From: a virus
Lineage: Duplodnaviria > Heunggongvirae > Uroviricota > Caudoviricetes
IMG/VR virus record: IMGVR_UViG_2657245050_000010
Length of the DNA stretch: 10,326 nt
Strand: one strand, 5' to 3'
The position numbers and the translations under genes are program-made. The first letter of the stretch is position 1; every line of letters starts with the position of its first letter. This document shows positions 1-10,326 of this stretch, one piece after another. Below the pieces are notes generated by a model, which made no database searches, had not been told where the DNA came from, and saw only the letters and a program-made list of their open reading frames with translations.

Positions 1-1317
1 CAGGACGCCACCACAGCGCGAAAAGGTCTTGTCCAGCTCAGTAGCGTCACCAACAGTGATTCTGAAACCCTCGCGGCAACGCCAAAAGCAGTGAAGTCTG
101 CCTATGACAATGCTGAAAAACGTCTTCAGAAAGATCAGAACGGTGCGGATATTCCGGGAAAGGATACCTTCACGAAAAATATCGGTGCCTGTCGTGCTTA
201 TAGCGGCGCTTTGAGCACTGAAGCCGGAAACTGGACAACCGCGCAGTTTATTGACTGGCTAGAGTCTCAGGGAGCCTTTAATCATCCTTACTGGATGTGC
301 AAGTGTTCCTGGTCATATGGTAATAACAAAATTATTACCGATACTGACTGTGGGACTATTCATCTTGCAGGTTGCGTGATTGAGGTTATGGGCGTTAAAG
401 CAGCAATGACCATTCGTGTGACCACTCCGAGTACATCAAGCAGTGGTGGTACCACCAGTGCGCAATTCACGTATATCAATCACGGAGCTGATTATGCGCC
501 GGGCTGGCGACGCGACTACAATACGAAAAATAAGCAACCGGCTTTTGCATTAGGGAAAACAGGAAATACGGTTGCAAATAATAAAGCAGTAGGATGGAAC
601 TGGGACAGTGGTGCTTATTGTGCACAGGATGGCGGAGCATCAAAAATGGTGCTGCATTTTTACACGGGTGAGGGAAGTTGTCCGGCAATGCAGTTTCTTG
701 TGGATTATAAAAACAGGGGGATTTTTTACAGGTCGGCACGTGATGGGTATGGATTTGAGGCTGACTGGTCAGAGTTTTATACCACATCACGAAAGCCAAC
801 ACCTGCGGATATTCTTGCTCTGGCATTATCAGGCGGAAGCATGTCAGGCAGCATAAAATTTATCAATGATGCCTTCCTGATTTGGGAAAGAAACACTGAC
901 TGGGCGAAAATTGGATTTAAAAATGATTCAGATGCTGATTCTGACTCATACATGTGGTTTGAAACTGGTGATAATGGCAATGAATATTTTAAATGGCGCA
1001 TCAGGTCTGGCAGCACAACAAAATATCTGATGACGCTTAAGTCTGATGCACTACGGGTTACCGGGCAGGTGATACCATCAAATTTCAGCAATTTTGACTC
1101 CCGCTATGTCAGGGATCTCCGGCTTGGTGGTGCCGCCACATACAAACCTGCGAACAATGGCATGACATGGACACATCAGGCACCGTCCGGGTGTGTATAT
1201 ACCGGCATTATTGTTCAGGATACAGGCTCAAACTCTGCCGATAACATTGGTGGCGTATATTACAGACCGGTTCAGAAATACATTAACGGGACGTGGTACA
1301 ACGTGGCGCAGGTATAA
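1..1317 (+). CDS. H: Tail fibre protein, P2 gpH-like, C-terminal ~438 codons; 5' end lies outside the window (frame 1 is open from base 1, first ATG at 91 is internal)
   Basis: Translation from base 1 reads QDATTARKGLVQLSSVTNSDSETLAATPKAVKSAYDNAEKRLQK, the conserved fibre motif shared by P2 H and other tail fibres, recognised from memory. Followed 3 nt later by a Tfa-like gene. Gly/Ser/Thr/Asn-rich distal part typical of receptor-binding tips. Confidence 0.88.
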   Translation, partial: QDATTARKGLVQLSSVTNSDSETLAATPKAVKSAYDNAEKRLQKDQNGADIPGKDTFTKNIGACRAYSGALSTEAGNWTTAQFIDWLESQGAFNHPYWMCKCSWSYGNNKIITDTDCGTIHLAGCVIEVMGVKAAMTIRVTTPSTSSSGGTTSAQFTYINHGADYAPGWRRDYNTKNKQPAFALGKTGNTVANNKAVGWNWDSGAYCAQDGGASKMVLHFYTGEGSCPAMQFLVDYKNRGIFYRSARDGYGFEADWSEFYTTSRKPTPADILALALSGGSMSGSIKFINDAFLIWERNTDWAKIGFKNDSDADSDSYMWFETGDNGNEYFKWRIRSGSTTKYLMTLKSDALRVTGQVIPSNFSNFDSRYVRDLRLGGAATYKPANNGMTWTHQAPSGCVYTGIIVQDTGSNSADNIGGVYYRPVQKYINGTWYNVAQV

Positions 1318-1320
1318 TTT

Positions 1321-1848
1321 ATGCAGCATTTGATAAATATAACGGCAGGTAATCCAAAAACGGTTGAACAATATCAATTGACAAAGGACTTTGATGTTGT
1401 CTGGTTTTTTTCAGAAGATGGTAAGAACTGGTACGAAGAACAAAAGTATTTTGCTGATGACACGATAAAAATAGCGTACGACAAAGATAATATTATCCGC
1501 TATGTGGAAAAGGATGTGACAGCTATCAGACCAGATGGATTAAGTGTTGTTGAAGTGCCGGATATTACTGCTAATCGACGGGCGGACATTTCAGGGAACT
1601 GGATGTTTAAGGATGGTACAGTGATTAAACGAATTTATACGGCAGAGGAATTGCAGCAGCAGGCAGAAAATCGGAAAGCCAGACTTCTTGCAGATGCTGA
1701 ATCCGTGATTTTGCCGCTGGAGCGCGCGGTCAGACTGAACATGGCAACAGATGAGGAGCGTAGCCGACTGGAAGCATGGGAACGCTACAGCGTTCTGGTC
1801 AGTCGTGTGGATCCTGCAAATCCTGAATGGCCGGAAATGCCGCAATAA
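1321..1848 (+). CDS. G: Tail fibre assembly chaperone (P2 gpG / Tfa family)
   Basis: 175-aa ORF starting 3 nt after the H stop. C-terminal [31 protein letters not shown] resembles Tfa C-termini. Position between H and the sheath gene matches P2. Confidence 0.88.
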
Positions 1849-1966
1849 GTTGTATGATCTCTGGAGTGAGCAAACGTATCTATGGCACAGAGTAAAGCCT
1901 AATCTGACAGGCCGCTCTGTGTCTGGAGTAGATTTTAGTAAAGCATTATTTTATTAGTGCAAATTC

Positions 1967-1995
1967 TAATCAATACATTTTATGTATATGATATC
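1967..1995 (+). promoter_or_regulatory. Candidate sigma70 promoter for the cargo gene (-35 TTCTAA at 1967-1972, 17-nt spacer, -10 TATGAT at 1990-1995)
   Basis: Read by eye in the AT-rich spacer upstream of the 2070 ORF. The -35 is poor (3/6), the -10 is 5/6. Purely sequence-based. Confidence 0.2.
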
Positions 1996-2069
1996 CTGCA
2001 GACTTTAATGACTTGGTTTAGGCTAACCAGATAACACTGAAGGAATATTTTTGATAATTAAGGTACGGT

Positions 2070-2663
2070 ATGTTTACTAAGCGACGATTAAAAAATATTA
2101 ACTGGGAGGCAAGTTCAGTGATTCTTGCTATGGTTCTCTTTGTTGGAAATATATTTTATACAAATCATCGTGATGATATAAGCATGGAGGCTGAGAGGGA
2201 CAGTATCAGAACAATGTTTGCATATGAAATCGCTAATAACCATCGCGCTCTCACTTTTCTTGATAAAACGAGACATATTGGCTTTGACGAAAATTCGGAG
2301 CATTTTGTTGGCGAGCCTTTTGCCATTAATGTCAAATCATTAGGGGGGCCTCGCTTACAGATTGCATTAAACCAGACTGATAAAGTGTTTAAATCCTACT
2401 TCAGCGAATTAAGTAAGCTTGATAAAGAGGATGTTACTCTTCTTATGGACTATTACCATGAGCAAAGCATCCTGCTGGAGCGTGTAAAATCTACGTTACA
2501 GAAGATGAAAAGTGGTAATGATATTAAAGTTGATATTGATGGTTACTTATTAGAAGAACACTTCATGAATGAGCTTAATCTTTCTAATATTTTGCTTAAA
2601 CGCTATAGCCATTTGTTGTCACAATACGCTAAAGAACATAAAACAAAAGATTTACACAATTGA
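2070..2663 (+). CDS. Hypothetical membrane-anchored protein, 197 aa; cargo (moron) gene at the G/FI junction, no recognisable family
   Basis: Long ORF in otherwise non-coding space between Tfa and sheath genes. N-terminus MFTKRRLKNINWEASSVILAMVLFVGNIFY is a basic stretch followed by one hydrophobic helix (signal-anchor-like). Composition is markedly AT-rich (about one-third G+C by eye) against a clearly GC-richer tail module. An alternative in-frame GTG start at 2118 is preceded by GGGAGG at 2104-2109. Confidence 0.7.
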   Translation: MFTKRRLKNINWEASSVILAMVLFVGNIFYTNHRDDISMEAERDSIRTMFAYEIANNHRALTFLDKTRHIGFDENSEHFVGEPFAINVKSLGGPRLQIALNQTDKVFKSYFSELSKLDKEDVTLLMDYYHEQSILLERVKSTLQKMKSGNDIKVDIDGYLLEEHFMNELNLSNILLKRYSHLLSQYAKEHKTKDLHN

Positions 2664-2869
2664 TAATCTGCTAATGGTTATTCATGGGGTAACTATGTTT
2701 TATATGTAATCCAACTCAGATGAATTATTGATTCTGGATAATAACCGCAGAGCGGCATATACCCTGACAGGCAAATGTCCGCTCCTCGCTCAAAGCAGAC
2801 TGTCAGATTTGATAGCTTTTGGGCTAAGTAAATTGTCAGTCGGAAAATGAGTGAGTACAAATCAGGACT

Positions 2870-2896
2870 GGCGGGTGAATTGCCCGCCTTTTCTTT
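2870..2896 (+). terminator. Rho-independent terminator: stem GGCGGG (2870-2875) / CCCGCC (2883-2888), 7-nt loop, T-tract TTTTCTTT (2889-2896)
   Basis: Perfect 6-bp all-GC stem followed directly by a T-run. Lies between the cargo locus and the FI gene, so it would insulate the late FI operon from upstream read-through. Confidence 0.6.
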
Positions 2897-2914
2897 ATCT
2901 GTTGTTTCATCCAC

Positions 2915-2929
2915 TGACCAGCCAGGTCA
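2915..2929. promoter_or_regulatory. Dyad TGACC-N5-GGTCA about 70 nt upstream of the FI start; candidate activator site of the late FI promoter
   Basis: Perfect 5-bp inverted repeat seen in sequence. Its position is roughly where P2 late promoters carry the Ogr-responsive dyad (remembered as TGT-N12-ACA, centred near -55). The sequence here does not match that consensus exactly, so the assignment is tentative. Confidence 0.25.
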
Positions 2930-2992
2930 AATAGCGTCTCATGCTCTGCCCAACGGAAAATAGTTGCACCCATTAACCACGGAGTTAAACGG

Positions 2993-4183
2993 ATGAGTGA
3001 CTATCATCACGGCGTGCAGGTGCTGGAGATTAACGACGGCACCCGCGTCATTTCCACCGTATCCACTGCCATTGTCGGCATGGTCTGCACGGCCAGCGAT
3101 GCGGATGCGGAAACCTTCCCCCTCAATAAACCTGTGCTGATTACCAATGTGCAGAGCGCAATTGCAAAGGCCGGTAAAAAAGGCACGCTGGCGGCATCGT
3201 TGCAGGCCATCGCTGACCAGTCAAAACCGGTCACCGTTGTCGTGCGCGTGGAAGACGGCACCGGCGACGACGAAGAAACGAAACTCGCGCAGACTGTTTC
3301 CAATATCATCGGCACCACCGACGAAAACGGTCAGTACACCGGACTGAAAGCCCTGCTGGCGGCGGAGTCGGTAACCGGTGTTAAACCGCGTATTCTCGGT
3401 GTGCCGGGACTGGATACCAAAGAGGTGGCTGTTGCACTGGCATCCGTCTGTCAGAAGCTGCGTGCTTTCGGATATATCAGCGCATGGGGCTGTAAGACCA
3501 TTTCCGAGGTGAAAGCCTACCGCCAGAATTTCAGCCAGCGTGAGCTGATGGTCATCTGGCCGGATTTCCTCGCATGGGATACGGTCAGCAGTACCACCGC
3601 CACCGCGTATGCCACCGCCCATGCGCTGGGTCTGCGCGCTAAAATCGACCAGGAGCAGGGCTGGCATAAAACGCTGTCCAATGTCGGGGTAAACGGTGTT
3701 ACCGGCATCAGCGCCTCTGTATTCTGGGATTTGCAGGAGTCCGGCACCGATGCTGACCTGTTGAACGAGTCAGGTGTCACAACGCTGATTCGCCGTGACG
3801 GTTTCCGCTTCTGGGGTAACCGTACCTGCTCTGATGACCCGCTGTTCCTCTTTGAAAACTACACCCGCACCGCGCAGGTGCTGGCCGACACGATGGCTGA
3901 GGCGCACATGTGGGCGGTGGACAAGCCCATCACTGCAACGCTGATTCGCGACATCGTTGACGGCATCAATGCCAAATTCCGTGAGCTGAAAACAAACGGC
4001 TATATCGTGGATGCGACCTGCTGGTTCAGCGAAGAATCCAACGATGCGGAAACCCTCAAGGCCGGAAAATTGTATATCGACTACGACTATACACCGGTGC
4101 CTCCTCTCGAAAACCTGACCCTGCGCCAGCGTATTACCGATAAATACCTGGCAAATCTGGTCACCTCGGTTAACAGCAATTAA
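2993..4183 (+). CDS. FI: Contractile tail sheath protein (P2 gpFI)
   Basis: 396 aa. Size, position and sequence character (MSDYHHGVQVLEINDGTRVISTVSTAIVGMVCTA...) match P2 FI from memory. GGAG RBS 9 nt upstream. Immediately followed by the tube gene. Confidence 0.93.
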   Translation: MSDYHHGVQVLEINDGTRVISTVSTAIVGMVCTASDADAETFPLNKPVLITNVQSAIAKAGKKGTLAASLQAIADQSKPVTVVVRVEDGTGDDEETKLAQTVSNIIGTTDENGQYTGLKALLAAESVTGVKPRILGVPGLDTKEVAVALASVCQKLRAFGYISAWGCKTISEVKAYRQNFSQRELMVIWPDFLAWDTVSSTTATAYATAHALGLRAKIDQEQGWHKTLSNVGVNGVTGISASVFWDLQESGTDADLLNESGVTTLIRRDGFRFWGNRTCSDDPLFLFENYTRTAQVLADTMAEAHMWAVDKPITATLIRDIVDGINAKFRELKTNGYIVDATCWFSEESNDAETLKAGKLYIDYDYTPVPPLENLTLRQRITDKYLANLVTSVNSN

Positions 4184-4195
4184 GGAGCCTGACCG

Positions 4196-4714
4196 ATGGC
4201 AATGCCGCGCAAACTCAAGTTAATGAACGTCTTTCTGAACGGCTACAGCTATCAGGGCGTTGCAAAGTCCGTCACGCTGCCAAAACTGACCCGTAAGCTC
4301 GAAAACTATCGCGGTGCGGGGATGAACGGCAGCGCACCGGTAGACCTCGGCCTTGATGACGATGCGCTGTCAATGGAGTGGTCGCTCGGGGGCTTCCCGG
4401 ATTCGGTTATCTGGGAGCTTTACGCCGCAATCGGTGTGGATGCTGTGCCGATTCGTTTTGCAGGCTCTTACCAGCGCGACGATACCGGCGAAACTGTGGC
4501 CGTCGAGGTGGTCATGCGTGGACGTCAGAAAGAAATCGACACCGGCGAGGGGAAACAGGGAGAAGACACCGAGTCGAAAATCTCCGTGGTCTGCACCTAT
4601 TTCCGGCTGACGATGGACGGTAAGGAACTGGTCGAAATCGACACCATCAACATGATTGAGAAGGTGAACGGCGTCGACCGGCTGGAACAACACCGCCGCA
4701 ATATCGGCCTGTAA
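4196..4714 (+). CDS. FII: Tail tube protein (P2 gpFII)
   Basis: 172 aa, N-terminus MAMPRKLKLMNVFLNGYSYQG. AAGGAG RBS at 4182-4187. Sheath-tube gene pair order. Confidence 0.93.
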   Translation: MAMPRKLKLMNVFLNGYSYQGVAKSVTLPKLTRKLENYRGAGMNGSAPVDLGLDDDALSMEWSLGGFPDSVIWELYAAIGVDAVPIRFAGSYQRDDTGETVAVEVVMRGRQKEIDTGEGKQGEDTESKISVVCTYFRLTMDGKELVEIDTINMIEKVNGVDRLEQHRRNIGL

Positions 4715-4721
4715 TTTTCAT

Positions 4722-4742
4722 CCGGTCAGCCTGGCTGACCGG
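4722..4742 (+). other. GC-rich hairpin between FII and E (CCGGTCAG / CTGACCGG stem, 5-nt loop), no T-tract
   Basis: Near-perfect palindrome CCGGTCAGCCTGGCTGACCGG starting 8 nt after the FII stop. No following U-run, so more likely an mRNA-stability or attenuation element than a full terminator. Confidence 0.4.
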
Positions 4743-4770
4743 TTAACCCCGATTCAGAAGTGAGAAAACC

Positions 4771-5046
4771 ATGAACAAAGAAAATGTGATTACCCTGGAC
4801 AATCCGGTCAAGCGTGGTGAGCAGGTTATCGAACAGGTCACGCTGATGAAACCCAGTGCGGGGACGCTGCGCGGTGTCAGTCTGGCTGCGGTCGCAAACT
4901 CAGAAGTCGATGCACTGATTAAGGTGCTGCCGCGCATGACGGCACCGATGCTGACCGAGCAGGAAGTCGCCGCGTTGGAACTGCCTGACCTTGTGGCGCT
5001 GGCCGGTAAGGTGGTCGGTTTTTTGTCGCCGAACTCGGTGCAGTGA
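4771..5046 (+). CDS. E: Tail assembly chaperone gpE (zero-frame product, 91 aa)
   Basis: 91-aa ORF between tube and tape-measure genes. Carries a T6G slippery run near its 3' end. Confidence 0.9.
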   Translation: MNKENVITLDNPVKRGEQVIEQVTLMKPSAGTLRGVSLAAVANSEVDALIKVLPRMTAPMLTEQEVAALELPDLVALAGKVVGFLSPNSVQ

Positions 5047-5198
5047 CGTTCCCGAAAAATCTGTCGGTCGATGACCTGATGGCGGATGTGGCAGTGATAT
5101 TTCACTGGCCGCCATCAGAACTGTATCCCATGAGCCTGACCGAACTCATCACATGGCGCGAAAAGGCGCTCCGGCGAAGCGGAAACACGAATGAGTAA
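4771..5198 (+). CDS. E+E': gpE+E' fusion made by programmed -1 ribosomal frameshift at 5019-5025; predicted 142 aa, overlapping the T start
   Basis: After a -1 slip on T_TTT_TTG the -1 frame stays open to TAA at 5196-5198, reading ...KVVGFFVAELGAVTFPKNLSVDDLMADVAVIFHWPPSELYPMSLTELITWREKALRRSGNTNE. Total length of 142 aa equals the P2 E+E' size as I remember it. Confidence 0.8.
5019..5025 (+). other. Slippery heptamer T_TTT_TTG for the E/E' -1 frameshift
   Basis: Run of six T then G, in the correct register relative to the E frame (codons TTT 5020-5022, TTG 5023-5025). Confidence 0.8.
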
Positions 5199-7620
5199 CA
5201 ATGTAAAATTACAGGTATTGCTCAGGGCTGTTGACCAGGCATCCCGCCCGTTTAAATCCATCCGCACAGCGAGCAAATCGCTGTCGGGGGATATCCGGGA
5301 AACACAAAAATCACTGCGCGAGCTGAACGGTCAGGCATCCCGTATTGAGGGATTTCGCAAGACCAGTGCACAGCTCGCCGTGACTGGTCATGCACTTGAA
5401 AAGGCACGGCAGGAGGCCGAAGCCCTTGCCACACAGTTTAAAAACACCGAACGTCCGACACGTGCTCAGGCGAAAGTGCTGGAATCCGCAAAGCGTGCGG
5501 CGGAGGACTTACAGGCGAAATATAACCGCCTGACGGATTCCGTTAAACGCCAGCAGCGGGAACTGGCCGTTGTGGGAATTAATACCCGCAATCTTGCACA
5601 TGATGAGCAGGGACTGAAAAACCGTATCAGTGAAACCACCGCACAACTTAACCGTCAGCGTGACGCGCTGGCGCGTGTCAGTGCGCAACAGGCAAAACTT
5701 AACGCAGTAAAACAGCGTTATCAGACAGGCAAGGAACTGGCCGGAAATATGGCCTCAGTGGGCGCTGCCGGTGTGGGGATTGCGGCGGCGGGAACGATGG
5801 CCGGAGTTAAGTTGCTGATGCCAGGTTATGAGTTTGCGCAGAAAAACTCAGAATTGCAGGCCGTGCTCGGTGTGGCAAAAGATTCCGCCGAAATGGCCGC
5901 GCTCCGCAAACAGGCGCGCCAGCTCGGCGACAATACCGCCGCCTCAGCGGATGATGCGGCCGGTGCACAGATAATCATCGCGAAAGCGGGTGGGGATGTT
6001 GATGCCATTCAGGCGGCAACGCCGGTCACGCTGAATATGGCGCTGGCGAACCGCCGCACGATGGAAGAAAACGCCGCCCTGCTGATGGGGATGAAATCCG
6101 CCTTTCAGCTTTCAAACGATAAGGTCGCTCATATCGGGGATGTTCTCTCCATGACGATGAACAAAACCGCCGCCGATTTTGACGGCATGAGCGATGCGCT
6201 GACCTATGCCGCACCTGTGGCAAAAAATGCCGGTGTCAGCATTGAAGAAACCGCCGCAATGGTCGGGGCGCTGCATGATGCAAAAATCACAGGCTCAATG
6301 GCGGGGACGGGAAGCCGTGCCGTGTTAAGCCGCCTGCAGGCACCGACGGGAAAAGCGTGGGATGCACTGAAAGAGCTTGGTGTGAAAACCTCAGACAGCA
6401 AGGGAAACACCCGACCAGTATTTACCATTCTGAAAGAAATGCAGGCCAGTTTTGAGAAAAACCGGCTCGGTACTGCCCAGCAGGCCGAATACATGAAAAC
6501 CATTTTCGGGGAGGAGGCCAGCTCAGCCGCCGCTGTGCTGATGACTGCCGCGTCAACCGGAAAGCTGGACAAACTGACCGCTGCGTTTAAAGCCTCAGAC
6601 GGAAAGACCGCAGAACTGGTAAATATCATGCAGGACAACCTCGGCGGTGACTTTAAGGAGTTTCAGTCCGCTTATGAGGCGGTGGGGACTGACCTGTTTG
6701 ACCAGCAGGAAGGCGCACTGCGTAAGCTCACTCAGACGGCCACAAAGTATGTGTTAAAACTCGACGGCTGGATCCAGAAAAACAAATCACTGGCGTCAAC
6801 CATCGGCCTCATTGTCGGTGGCGCGCTGGCGCTTACTGGCATCATCGGTGCCATTGGTCTTGTAGCCTGGCCGGTTATCACCGGCATCAATGCCATTATC
6901 GCGGCAGCAGGCGCAATGGGGGCAATCTTCACGACGGTTGGTAGTGCTGTTATGACGGCCATCGGGGCGATTAGCTGGCCGGTTGTGGCCGTGGTGGCCG
7001 CCATTGTCGCCGGGGCGTTGCTTATCCGTAAATACTGGGAGCCTGTCAGCGCATTCTTTGCCGGTGTGGTCGAGGGGCTCATGAGTGCCTTTGCGCCGGT
7101 CGGGGAAATGTTCGCCCCGCTGGCACCCATTTTCGACGGTCTCGGCGAAAAACTTCGCGGCGTCTGGCAGTGGTTTAAAGACCTGATAGCGCCGGTGAAA
7201 GCGACTCAGGACACGCTCAACAGTTGTCGTGATGTTGGGGTTATGTTCGGTCAGACGCTGGCCGATGCGCTGCTGATGCCGCTTAACGCCTTTAACAAGC
7301 TGCGAAGCGGGATTGACTGGGTGCTCGAAAAACTCGGCATTATCAACAAAGAATCCAGCTCACTTGACCAGACAGCGGCGAAAGCCAATGCAGCGACGCA
7401 GAACGGTTACAGCCCGGCAATCAGCGCATACAACAGCTATCAGCCGGTCACGGCACCCGCCGGTAAAACCTACATCGACCAGAGTCGGCCAATCTATCAA
7501 ATCACCGTGCCGGGCAATGGTATGCCGGGAGATCGGTTGGGTAATGATTTGCAGGATGCATTAGAAAAGTATGAGCGCGAGAAGCGCGCCAAAGCCCGCG
7601 CAAGCATGATGCATGACTAA
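5191..7620 (+). CDS. T: Tail tape measure protein (P2 gpT)
   Basis: 809 aa. Ala/Gln-rich coiled-coil-like N-terminal half, then a long Gly/Ala/Ile-rich hydrophobic segment (residues ~530-610) typical of tape measure proteins. Start overlaps the E' end. Position after the chaperone pair. Confidence 0.93.
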   Translation: MSNNVKLQVLLRAVDQASRPFKSIRTASKSLSGDIRETQKSLRELNGQASRIEGFRKTSAQLAVTGHALEKARQEAEALATQFKNTERPTRAQAKVLESAKRAAEDLQAKYNRLTDSVKRQQRELAVVGINTRNLAHDEQGLKNRISETTAQLNRQRDALARVSAQQAKLNAVKQRYQTGKELAGNMASVGAAGVGIAAAGTMAGVKLLMPGYEFAQKNSELQAVLGVAKDSAEMAALRKQARQLGDNTAASADDAAGAQIIIAKAGGDVDAIQAATPVTLNMALANRRTMEENAALLMGMKSAFQLSNDKVAHIGDVLSMTMNKTAADFDGMSDALTYAAPVAKNAGVSIEETAAMVGALHDAKITGSMAGTGSRAVLSRLQAPTGKAWDALKELGVKTSDSKGNTRPVFTILKEMQASFEKNRLGTAQQAEYMKTIFGEEASSAAAVLMTAASTGKLDKLTAAFKASDGKTAELVNIMQDNLGGDFKEFQSAYEAVGTDLFDQQEGALRKLTQTATKYVLKLDGWIQKNKSLASTIGLIVGGALALTGIIGAIGLVAWPVITGINAIIAAAGAMGAIFTTVGSAVMTAIGAISWPVVAVVAAIVAGALLIRKYWEPVSAFFAGVVEGLMSAFAPVGEMFAPLAPIFDGLGEKLRGVWQWFKDLIAPVKATQDTLNSCRDVGVMFGQTLADALLMPLNAFNKLRSGIDWVLEKLGIINKESSSLDQTAAKANAATQNGYSPAISAYNSYQPVTAPAGKTYIDQSRPIYQITVPGNGMPGDRLGNDLQDALEKYEREKRAKARASMMHD

Positions 7621-8098: not shown

Positions 8099-9271
8099 AT
8101 GCTGGATATTATCACCGGCGCGGGTGCCACGCTGACGCCCGACTTTATGCTGACACTGGAAAGCAAAGATATCACCGGCAATATCAGTGACCGGCTGATT
8201 AACCTCTCGATGACGGACAATCGGGGTTTTGAGGCCGACCAGCTCGACATCGAGCTCGACGATACTGACGGTCTGGTCGCATTGCCGATTCGCGGTGCGG
8301 TGCTGTCGCTGTATCTCGGGTGGAAAGGTTTCTCTCTGGTCAGCAAGGGGCGATTTACCGTCGATGAGGTAGAGCACCGGGGGGCGCCGGATACGGTAAC
8401 CATTCGCGCCCGGGGTGCGGATTTTCGCGGGACGCTTAATTCCCGTCGTGAGGAGTCATGGCATGACACCACGCTCGGCGCAATCGTCAGCTCGATAGCT
8501 GAGCGGAACAAGTTAACGGCCAGCGTCACTGATTCTCTTGCGGGGATCCAGATTCCGCATATCGACCAGTCTCAGGAATCCGACGCCGTTTTCCTGACTC
8601 GCCTCGCAGAACGCAACGGCGGTGCGGTCTCAGTGAAAGCGGGTAGATTGCTGATGCTCAAAGCGGGAAGCGGTACCACTGCCAGTGGAAAAGCTATTCC
8701 TCAAATTACCATCCAGCGCGGTGACGGTGACCGGCATCAGTTTGCCATTGCCGACCGTGGCGCTTACACCGGCGTAACCGCTAAGTGGCTGCACACTAAA
8801 GACCCGAAACCGGCGAAACAAAAGCAGACAGTGAAGCTGAAACGTAAGCCCAAAGAGCAACACCTCCGGGCGCTACAGCACCCGAAAGCAAAACCAGTGA
8901 GCAGTAAAGTCACGGCCAAAAAGCAAAAAGAGCAGGAAGCCCGCGAGGGTGAATACATGGCCGGTGAGGCTGACAACGTTTTCGCGCTGACGACCATTTA
9001 CGCGACAAAGGCGCAAGCGATGCGTGCAGCTCAGGCGAAGTGGGATAAATTGCAGCGTGGGGTTGCGGAGTTCTCCATTATGTTAGCGACCGGCCGCGAG
9101 GATATTTACCCCGAAACGCCGGTCAGGGTCTCAGGCTTTAAGAGCGTTATAGACGAGCAAGCATGGATAATCAGCAGGGTGACCCATAATCTCGGTGGGA
9201 ATGGCTTCACAACGGCTGTAGAGCTTGAGGTGATGCTTTCGGATGTAGAATATGACACCGACGAATCTTGA
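8099..9271 (+). CDS. D: Tail protein gpD (phage late control D family)
   Basis: 390-aa ORF starting 2 nt after the U stop. Size and position match P2 D. Contains an internal Lys-rich low-complexity stretch. Confidence 0.88.
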   Translation: MLDIITGAGATLTPDFMLTLESKDITGNISDRLINLSMTDNRGFEADQLDIELDDTDGLVALPIRGAVLSLYLGWKGFSLVSKGRFTVDEVEHRGAPDTVTIRARGADFRGTLNSRREESWHDTTLGAIVSSIAERNKLTASVTDSLAGIQIPHIDQSQESDAVFLTRLAERNGGAVSVKAGRLLMLKAGSGTTASGKAIPQITIQRGDGDRHQFAIADRGAYTGVTAKWLHTKDPKPAKQKQTVKLKRKPKEQHLRALQHPKAKPVSSKVTAKKQKEQEAREGEYMAGEADNVFALTTIYATKAQAMRAAQAKWDKLQRGVAEFSIMLATGREDIYPETPVRVSGFKSVIDEQAWIISRVTHNLGGNGFTTAVELEVMLSDVEYDTDES

Positions 9272-9286
9272 TTATACAAACAAAAC

Positions 9287-9314
9287 TTGCAAATGTAAGA
9301 TTCAAGTTTATTAT
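9287..9314 (+). promoter_or_regulatory. Candidate sigma70 promoter for ogr (-35 TTGCAA at 9287-9292, 16-nt spacer, -10 TATTAT at 9309-9314)
   Basis: Hexamers read by eye in the 76-nt D-ogr spacer. Consistent with ogr having its own promoter in P2 (remembered). RBS AGGAGAGGGA at 9331-9340. Confidence 0.35.
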
Positions 9315-9347
9315 CCCCCTCAAGTCAGCAAGGAGAGGGAAGAAATT

Positions 9348-9566
9348 ATGATGCACTGTCCGCTATGTCAGGATGCAGCACACGCACGATCAAGCCGGTA
9401 CCTGAGCACTGAAACGAAAGAGCGCTACCACCAGTGCCAGAACATCAACTGCGGTTGCACTTTCGTCACCCACGAGAGCCTTGCTCGTTTTATCGTGAAG
9501 CCAGGAGAAATTGAACCCGCCCCACCCCACCCGTCTAAATACCAACAACATCAGCTCTGGCTTTAA
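9348..9566 (+). CDS. ogr: Ogr, zinc-finger late-gene transcription activator (72 aa)
   Basis: MMHCPLCQDAAHARSSRYLSTETKERYHQCQNINC has the Cys-X2-Cys-X22-Cys-X4-Cys spacing and strong resemblance to P2 Ogr (remembered as MFHCPLCQHAAHAR...KERYHQCQNVNC). The track ORF begins at 9252, but the internal ATG at 9348 is the one with an RBS and gives 72 aa. Confidence 0.9.
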   Translation: MMHCPLCQDAAHARSSRYLSTETKERYHQCQNINCGCTFVTHESLARFIVKPGEIEPAPPHPSKYQQHQLWL

Positions 9567-9603: not shown

Positions 9604-10326
9604 TTAGATTGGTAATGAAAAAGCTATCGCCTTGCAGATATGTTGCTTTGTTAACGCAGGATGTGTTGAAGCAAAAAGCGATAAAAAGCTTTTAGCTTCA
9701 ACCGAATCATCATTAAGCGAAATATTATCTTTGATGAATGGATGAAGTGCGATTCCAGCGCTCATAGATAACGGCACATAGTTGATGAATATATCTTCTT
9801 TTGTGAGACCTAGCTGGTTTGCTTGTGCTTCAAATGAATTAGCATCTAAATAATCACGTATACGTTCTTTGGCCTCTGGTCGGAGTCTCGATTCTTGACG
9901 CGGCAGAGAAAGCATCTTATCAATATCTCCCCATGAGATAGGAACCTCAAAATAGCCACCACCTTCTTCCTCTGGAGGTGCCGGGAAATTCACATAAAAA
10001 TAGTTTTTTTGCTGTGTAGGGTCGTTCATGGACTGACGATGATAGTTATAAATACTTCTAATACGGTTGGCCTTGTTATGATGCCGAGCATTTCGAATAA
10101 CAAGCATCATTAATAATTCAGGTTTCAAATACCAGTCAGGCTCTAATCCATTGCTTTGCATGTTGTCATACAAATTATGAAAAGCATTAAGTTGTGTATT
10201 CAGGCCCGATTCTAAATTGCCAATTGCTTCAGCACGATCAATAGCCAACAAACGCTGTAGTGACCAGTTAGACTCTAATAAAACCCGAAAGGCCTGTGCA
10301 AGATCTTCAAAAGAGTGGGAAAGCAT
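9604..10326 (-). CDS. Hypothetical protein, at least 240 aa, with a HEPN-like RNxxxH motif (VIRNARHHNK); candidate Abi-type or HEPN RNase. Start codon coincides with the window edge, so the N-terminus may be incomplete
   Basis: Uninterrupted 723-nt minus-strand ORF, convergent with ogr. AT-rich (roughly 38-40% G+C by eye) against the GC-richer tail genes. The RNARHH hexapeptide fits the R-[N]-x3-H form of the HEPN Rx4-6H catalytic motif. No other family signature recognised. Confidence 0.6.
   Translation of the reverse strand: MLSHSFEDLAQAFRVLLESNWSLQRLLAIDRAEAIGNLESGLNTQLNAFHNLYDNMQSNGLEPDWYLKPELLMMLVIRNARHHNKANRIRSIYNYHRQSMNDPTQQKNYFYVNFPAPPEEEGGGYFEVPISWGDIDKMLSLPRQESRLRPEAKERIRDYLDANSFEAQANQLGLTKEDIFINYVPLSMSAGIALHPFIKDNISLNDDSVEAKSFLSLFASTHPALTKQHICKAIAFSLPI

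Follow-up and report, generated by a model that had tools for sequence, protein, structure and literature searches.

A candidate phage-exclusion gene in the G/FI cargo cassette of a P2-like prophage, and the palindromes that bound it

Introduction

What does a small, AT-rich gene do that lies between the tail-fibre assembly gene G and the tail sheath gene FI of a P2-like prophage, and by what route do such genes reach this place? The question was raised by IMG/VR virus record IMGVR_UViG_2657245050_000010, of which one strand of 10,326 nt (hereafter the window) was analyzed, corresponding to the late tail region of a P2-like prophage. An initial annotation, made from the sequence, had singled out an open reading frame of 197 codons (ORF197) as horizontally acquired cargo at the position of P2 Z/fun, and had proposed that it might encode an undescribed single-gene defence or exclusion system. 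We find that ORF197 is a real, conserved and mobile cargo gene, often situated beside defence genes, and that its product is, as modelled, membrane-anchored and helical; its topology, its being expressed in lysogens and any activity against phages, with the mechanism thereof, are inferred. Our preferred reading, that the protein acts in phage exclusion at the level of the envelope, is tentative and falls somewhat short of an even chance. Neither the hotspot nor the gene as such is new, and ORF197 is an uncharacterised candidate for exclusion or defence cargo.

The cargo cassette and its gene

The G/FI junction is polymorphic among P2-like phages: it holds fun(Z) in P2, orf44 in Wphi, NUDIX and HAD genes in P24C9 and a SMEK-domain gene in 12474III, and is empty in Yersinia phage P37, so that the comparison of junctions proposed with the initial annotation has confirmed presence/absence polymorphism. 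In blast comparisons and alignments with the four relatives that carry other cargo (P2, Wphi, P24C9 and 12474III), homology ends at 1921 and restarts at 2771-2778, and the cassette therefore spans 1922-2776; the stretches 1849-1921 and 2777-2992 are backbone common to other P2-likes. The variable segment, previously given as 1849-2992, thus does lie within the G/FI gap but has the narrower extent. The features of the cassette that bear on the gene are:

1922-2776, plus strand: variable cargo cassette, G+C 0.343
2060-2063, plus strand: Shine-Dalgarno sequence AAGG, 6 nt upstream of the ORF197 ATG
2070-2663, plus strand: ORF197, 197 aa with ATG start, predicted bitopic membrane protein with a four-helix-bundle domain, PHROG 3829
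2109-2162, plus strand: codons of the predicted transmembrane (TM) helix, residues 14-31, at the Kyte-Doolittle maximum and within modelled helix 12-66

The G+C content of ORF197 is 0.352 (0.338 at third codon positions, GC3), compared to 0.562 (GC3 0.678) for FI and 0.44-0.46 for G and H, and a sliding profile falls to 0.32-0.39 across approximately 1800-2850. A deviant composition (0.35 versus 0.56) at a junction that is empty or otherwise filled in relatives is what is expected of a phage moron in the Hendrix/Juhala sense, and the description of ORF197 as AT-rich, horizontally acquired cargo at the Z/fun position between G and FI holds. The initial annotation also described this junction as a site for anti-phage genes, in agreement with Vassallo 2022 (PMC9519451), where the same locus is a second defence-enriched site, with three validated PD systems plus fun, and with the iLund4u preprint and Moura de Sousa et al. 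2026, which likewise describe the P2 G/FI hotspot.

Upstream of the start codon, TTTTTGATAATTAAGG is kept in the E. coli, Pantoea and Enterobacter copies. An NWEA motif is invariant at the N-terminus of the family, and the ATG at 2070 is for this reason preferred over the shorter start of some phage records. An Rfam scan of 1800-3050 returned only a sub-threshold chance match to a snoRNA.

Conservation and distribution

Long reading frames arise easily in AT-rich DNA and no domain was found in ORF197, as would be expected of a spurious or decaying frame in AT-rich junk DNA. The chance of this is negligible in our view: comparison with the Pantoea, Salmonella and Enterobacter-plasmid copies gave ratios of non-synonymous to synonymous substitution (dN/dS) of 0.06-0.15 at saturated dS (1.2-3), which effectively refutes it and indicates, at the level of sequence, a genuine gene under purifying selection. 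Full-length homologues of 53-94% identity with conserved motifs in at least six genera (Escherichia, Pantoea, Pluralibacter, Salmonella, Kosakonia, Enterobacter), the conserved Shine-Dalgarno sequence and a confident structural model (below) likewise speak against junk.

The family has 29 representatives among 1.84 billion proteins, and the exact ORF197 protein is found on 386 contigs. Of 5426 complete E. coli genomes, 1036 match the conserved flanks and 201 contain at least 80% of 1849-2992, such that about 4% of these genomes and about a fifth of the related P2 G/FI junctions have ORF197. A tblastn search of 50,697 phage records located the gene in 13, and all 29 P2-like IMG/VR contigs carrying it have it between G and FI. 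One IMG/VR contig of 5017 bp (IMGVR_UViG_2675903614_000005, L142) encodes H, G, ORF197 and FI proteins 100% identical to those of the window and is probably of the same or a clonal source.

ORFs of 94-100% identity are paired with at least three allele classes of G (about 96-100%, 77% and 72%) and with unrelated H tips. The idea that ORF197 hides the receptor used by its own phage, in step with the type of tail fibre, was therefore considered and rejected; the pairing with such varied partners would rather argue for a portable, generally useful function.

Membrane anchor, fold and homology searches

ORF197 has a single hydrophobic segment (residues 14-30/31), flanked N-terminally by MFTKRRLKNINWE with four K/R and one D/E, whereas the 15 residues past the helix contain two K/R and five D/E. 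A basic N-flank and one N-terminal TM segment are found across the family, and the positive-inside N-terminus with a single TM helix noted at the outset is thus borne out by prediction; distant members additionally have CxxxxC pairs in the C-terminal domain. Modelling with AlphaFold2 (AF2) on close homologues only gave an unusable model with a predicted local distance difference test score (pLDDT) of 48, which rose to 82.8, at a predicted template modelling score (pTM) of 0.71, when distant representatives were added. The resulting model comprises a helix from residue 12 to 66 and a four-helix bundle.

The fold searches suggested with the initial annotation yielded less than the model itself: the top matches are to bundles of a generic kind, among them OspC and the ligand-binding domains that chemoreceptors have in the periplasm, with no enzyme fold among the structural matches and no specific structural relative in PDB or BFVD. 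A HEPN domain was considered and rejected, as the Rx4-6H motif is absent. At the sequence level, ORF197 matches PHROG 3829 over residues 1-197 of 197 (E 7e-137), a group annotated as 'unknown function'. At NCBI it is labelled 'lysogenic conversion protein', a label for which no experimental support was found. Searches of Pfam and NCBIfam with ORF197 and 19 family members gave no real match, consistent with the earlier impression that the protein has no recognisable motif. ORF197 has no match in PADLOC-DB v2.0.0 at E<=1, PADLOC searches with the 19 family members gave scattered single-member noise only, a PDB sequence profile search returned noise only (E>=0.13), and no homology to a characterised superinfection-exclusion (Sie) family was seen in the PHROGs scan, the PDB sequence and fold searches or the BFVD fold search. 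With no homology to defence proteins detected and the gene catalogued as PHROG 3829 and under an NCBI name, the term undescribed single-gene system is still conjectural. By prediction, ORF197 is a small membrane-anchored prophage accessory protein, as expected for superinfection exclusion.

Neighbours in other mobile elements

In the contexts examined, family members are always single-gene cargo of mobile elements:

L008: Pantoea island with AlpA; an Rhs toxin/immunity array lies about 4 kb from the family member
L009: Salmonella prophage-adjacent locus, beside lambdoid tail-fibre genes, with a type II restriction-modification (R-M) pair directly downstream
L011: Enterobacter IncFII plasmid, beside IS91 and VapC
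L012: Dickeya locus, beside SIR2-HerA and IS110
L013: tra region of a Salmonella conjugative element
L014: tail region of a Pectobacterium siphophage, opposite strand
L016: island with a distant member (29% identity) at 6001-6657 and a TIR protein at 5090-5962

The pattern is consistent with a defence or exclusion gene, short of proof. In L016, the TIR protein (PADLOC candidate PDC-S66) is encoded right after an integrase, on the same strand and 39 nt upstream of the family member, and the two may form a two-gene unit of TIR and membrane protein.

This arrangement bears on an alternative in which ORF197 is an abortive-infection membrane effector, or part of a sensor and effector pair, that oligomerises upon infection and damages the inner membrane, alone or via a sensor such as TIR. 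Cassettes of TIR plus TM protein are a known design, one being present at the other hotspot of phage AC1 (below), and further homologues adjoin SIR2-HerA and R-M systems. However, the TIR partner was seen in one of about ten contexts, the gene standing alone elsewhere; PADLOC lists PDC-S66 as a candidate system of one gene; ORF197 has only one TM helix and lacks a nucleotide-sensing domain; and the lysogen data discussed below are as negative for abortive infection as they are for exclusion. We therefore regard this alternative as unlikely.

Boundary palindromes

The cargo slot of P2-like phages is flanked by a 33-nt inverted repeat, the inner 24 nt of which constitute on each side an imperfect palindrome of the type GTCCGCT-N10-AGCGGAC:

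1901-1933, no strand assigned: left arm of the inverted repeat with the left palindrome, consensus GTCCGCTCTGTGCCAGAAGCGGAC, from alignment with P2, Wphi, P24C9 and 12474III and from the blast boundaries
2777-2809, no strand assigned: right arm of the inverted repeat, with the right palindrome GTCCGCTCCTCGCTCAAAGCAGAC (2777-2800) followed by TGTCAGATT

The left palindrome of the window is interrupted within its loop, at about 1921/1922, its 3' half being replaced in the ORF197 cassette. Both palindromes are found again on either side of the ORF197 homologue of the Enterobacter plasmid (L011, at 4784-4807 and 5606-5629) and of the one in the Pantoea island (L008, at 4785-4808 and 5709-5732), nothing else of P2 being present at either locus, and related palindromes occur near the distant homologues in L013 (5769-5792 and 10676-10699) and L012; about 2e-3 such matches are expected by chance per 10-kb locus. 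Four-way alignments have a context-specific outer flank and a cassette-specific interior, with the palindrome alone shared, which is the classical signature of a junction. The right palindrome is identical between window and plasmid in 23 of 24 positions, at an ORF dS of about 1.4.

An exact-pattern scan was carried out on one genome per species (16 fixed bases, 596 Gb), for which about 280 chance matches are expected; matches outside Enterobacterales are mostly chance or unrelated, and the enterobacterial loci alone were interpreted. Among the matches listed, at least 12 enterobacterial loci have the palindromes and lack P2 tail genes. The palindromes are situated in intergenic gaps, in L091, L044, L079 and L085 as inverted doublets 18 nt apart. 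They bound a SIR2 (PDC-S25) protein and an ApeA-HEPN protein in L041 (1420/5047) and a PDC-M28-like ATPase in L070 (1356/5176), follow PD-Lambda-4_A in L091 (5638/5680), and are located at 81-146 and 1016-1081 in L085.

The last locus, from Phytobacter ursingii, has a palindrome-separated array of Sel1, DUF2946 plus PepSY_TM, and CdiI_3 genes in a loosely integron-like layout, with a gene of the tyrosine recombinase family (224-aa ORF call, 4420-5094, minus strand) beside it.

The palindromes may be recombination sites for the exchange of cassettes, or may instead be REP-like (repetitive extragenic palindrome) passive substrates or insulators of transcripts. Repeats at this site may already have been described (Nilsson et al. 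2004, Mol Biol Evol 21:1). The palindromes may matter more than ORF197 itself, as they mark the exact exchange junctions of unrelated P2-like cargo and recur around defence cassettes, offering a testable handle on the movement of defence genes between unrelated mobile elements. In Moura de Sousa et al. 2026, the mechanism by which P2 and P4 exchange genes with other mobile elements is given as unknown, and the palindromes are unmentioned. The combined proposition, that ORF197 founds a new envelope-acting exclusion family and that the 24-nt palindromes are the recombination sites of an unrecognised cassette exchange, strikes us as improbable as a whole; if true, such exchange would move defence genes among plasmids, genomic islands and conjugative elements of Enterobacterales and the P2 G/FI hotspot, and would answer that question for P2 defence exchange.

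Transcription signals

The initial annotation had ORF197 transcribed independently of the late tail operons, from a candidate promoter upstream and with an intrinsic terminator downstream. The signals around the gene are:

1964-1998, plus strand: AT-rich block conserved with the Pantoea cassette, from the upstream alignment
2870-2896, plus strand: intrinsic terminator of the late V-W-J-I-H-G operon, conserved backbone, downstream of ORF197
2900-2925, plus strand: Ogr/activator binding site of the late promoter P_F, from alignment to the annotated P2 record, which places the P_F start site at about 2967-2969

With a hairpin at 2870-2888 (-16.8 kcal/mol, z -2.8) followed by a T-tract, the terminator is credible as such. 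It is also kept in P2, Wphi, P24C9, 12474III and cargo-less P37, where it comes straight after the G stop codon; as it is present with other cargo or with none, it belongs to the backbone of the V/H/G operon and not to the cassette. Cargo is inserted between G and this element, no terminator lies between G and ORF197, and the cassette does not have the terminator of its own that a moron would. The sole consensus promoter match upstream, at 2031-2058, is at chance level (2 found, 3.4 expected), and was rejected on this ground and because its start site would fall after the Shine-Dalgarno sequence, leaving the latter untranscribed. Independent transcription has thus lost its grounds. The block at 1964-1998, which reads CTCTAAT(C/T)AATA(C/T)ATTTTA..TATATGATAT in the E. 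coli/Pantoea alignment, is conserved despite an ORF identity of only about 74% and saturated synonymous sites, and is a candidate for the native promoter or operator. With no terminator after G, late transcripts would be expected to run on into ORF197; read-through from the late V operon and lysogenic expression are, in our estimate, equally likely.

The same layout would suit a late lytic role together with the tail-fibre genes, be it in stopping the ejection of progeny genomes into infected or lysing cells or in tuning lysis: ORF197 shares the strand of H-G and precedes the first terminator (2870-2896). Exclusion genes beside receptor-binding genes have precedents in T5 llp and phi80 cor. 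Against such a role, only about a fifth of related junctions have the gene, the junction of some phages being empty, it is unlinked to any H or G allele, and its homologues in plasmids, islands and a conjugative element have no phage late operon around them; we consider it distinctly improbable, more so than abortive infection.

Published lysogens and the proposed function

The only published lysogen tests of phages with this gene are those of Rousset et al. 2022, in which four P2-like phages were each established as lysogens in E. coli C and challenged with a panel comprising lambda, T4, P1, 186, CLB_P2, LF82_P8, AL505_P2 and T7, with no T5-like phage. Two of these four carry ORF197, namely AC1 (95% amino acid identity) and SIDE7 (OU784746, 98.5%). 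Protection was reported only for AC1, against lambda and LF82_P8, and was reproduced by cloning the TIR system that AC1 has at its other hotspot; no protection attributable to ORF197 is reported for either lysogen. Indirectly, these data argue against broad defence by ORF197 in E. coli C.

The lysogens also bear on the alternative that ORF197 is a non-antiviral lysogenic-conversion or fitness factor, either an orphan immunity protein against a membrane-acting bacteriocin, contact-dependent inhibition (CDI) or a type VI secretion system toxin, or a factor in envelope stress or colonisation. The AC1 and SIDE7 lysogens have no reported anti-phage phenotype beyond the TIR system, the G/FI site also holds non-defence cargo such as NUDIX/HAD, the Pantoea copy has the Rhs toxin/immunity array in its vicinity, and the palindrome-separated genes of Phytobacter include the CdiI_3 immunity protein. 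Small bitopic proteins with periplasmic domains are moreover typical immunity proteins. On the other hand, the Pfam and NCBIfam searches gave no likeness to a known immunity family, a cognate toxin gene is not consistently adjacent, and immediate neighbours are defence genes in three contexts. We rate a conversion factor, like abortive infection, as rather unlikely.

In the envelope-exclusion reading, which we prefer, ORF197 would be a bitopic inner-membrane protein with a basic cytoplasmic tail of 13 residues, the TM helix (residues ~14-31) of which would run on as a long helix and end in a compact four-helix bundle of about 150 residues, placed in the periplasm by the positive-inside rule. 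As the model shows neither an enzymatic fold nor an output domain in the cytoplasm, binding at the envelope would be its most likely action: it would be a protein of the superinfection-exclusion type that hinders the genome entry of incoming phages or other DNA, or might alternatively target an inner-membrane or periplasmic component that these need. In favour of this reading count the purifying selection on the gene, its abundance and constant place in a known hotspot, its state as single-gene cargo of mobile elements, the defence genes beside it, the N-terminal anchor and modelled fold, and its lack of coupling to the G and H alleles. Several points weigh against it. Four-helix bundles are generic as a fold, the searches above gave neither sequence similarity nor specific structural likeness to a characterised exclusion or defence protein, and the sole basis of the topology is charge bias. 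By the consensus scan no promoter above chance level lies upstream of ORF197, which, as judged from the arrangement of signals, is in the same transcription unit as the late V operon. Guilt by association is weakened because the gene occupies general cargo sites, and the published AC1 and SIDE7 lysogens count on the same side. If ORF197 does exclude phages, it would be a common, compact single-gene envelope barrier with a bearing on host-range prediction and phage therapy.

Other features of the window

The gene order in the window is the 3' part of H, G, the gap, FI, FII, E/E', T, U, D and ogr, and comparison with P2 and its relatives bears out the collinearity with P2 that had been stated for the H-G and FI-D blocks. 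The genes next to the cassette are:

91-1317, plus strand: tail-fibre gene H, C-terminal part, with the 5' end beyond the window start; Pfam gp37_C and Gp34_trimer, tail fiber protein in homologous prophages
1321-1848, plus strand: tail-fibre assembly gene G; Pfam Caudo_TAP (E 1e-34), annotated in relatives
2993-4183, plus strand: tail sheath gene FI

The counterparts of P2 E and its E' extension are overlapping ORFs at 4771-5046 and 5043-5198 (plus strand); E' is reached via a -1 frameshift in the annotated P2 record, and this tail-chaperone frameshift appears to be conserved in the window. The ogr ORF was called at 9252-9566 (plus strand, 104 aa) and begins within D; its match to the Ogr_Delta zinc finger covers residues 35-81, and the true start is probably the ATGATG at 9348, yielding 72 aa as in P2. 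In some phage records, a minus-strand 38-aa 'FIG00643520 hypothetical protein' is annotated at about 2857-2973. It is probably a miscall, and it overlaps the backbone terminator as well as the activator site of P_F.

Just downstream of ogr, a complete AT-rich ORF of 240 aa (G+C 0.39) occupies 9604-10326 on the minus strand. It has no match in Pfam, PADLOC or NCBIfam, no meaningful match in PHROG, and no tblastn match in the 50,697 phage records. A third P2 hotspot has been placed between the tail genes and the region for immunity and integration (iLund4u preprint); the ORF is located at that position, and so is probably a second cargo gene, with no function assigned.

Comparison with known systems

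HK97 gp15, T4 Sp and lactococcal Sie2009 are small bitopic superinfection-exclusion proteins of phage morons. ORF197 resembles them as a phage-encoded single gene with an N-terminal anchor and a predicted extracytoplasmic domain, and is located among tail genes, as is gp15. It is larger than gp15 or Sp and has no sequence similarity to the three, its only real PHROG match being 3829.

The ligand-binding domains of the chemoreceptors Tar, Tsr, PcaY and PilJ share the bundle with ORF197 at generic scores, de novo designed bundles scoring higher. Unlike chemoreceptors, ORF197 has no second TM helix, HAMP domain, signalling domain or Pfam 4HB_MCP match; membership in their four-helix-bundle (4HB) class was rejected, given that there is one TM helix and the protein ends after the bundle.

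REP/REPIN elements and integron attC sites are, like the boundary palindromes, short imperfect palindromes, and mark the junction of a context flank with a swappable cassette; the intergenic position and the inverted doublets are as in REP/REPIN. The boundary palindromes are nevertheless unlike the E. coli REP consensus and the GTTRRRY cores of attC R'/R'', and no RAYT or IntI gene was identified near them in the 8-kb loci. Their copy number per genome appears low, each enterobacterial species being represented by a single locus among the matches listed. An integron gene cassette was rejected for the lack of GTTRRRY cores and of an integrase in the window.

P2 fun(Z) (NP_046777) has the same G/FI insertion site as ORF197, and both are AT-rich non-essential cargo; the NCBI name 'lysogenic conversion protein' is probably owed to this shared site. 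The product of fun(Z), however, has 528 aa, is encoded on the opposite strand and has no sequence similarity to the 197-aa protein; T5 is blocked by fun, but no phenotype is known for ORF197. Homology to Z/fun was rejected, as none of the 13 tblastn records is reference P2, and the initial annotation was right to separate the two. PD-T4-5, PD-T4-9/CmdTAC, PD-T4-10 and PD-lambda-5 differ from ORF197 and 18 family members, which lack a meaningful match in PADLOC-DB v2; these systems are alternative occupants of the same palindrome-bounded slot (Vassallo 2022; iLund4u preprint).

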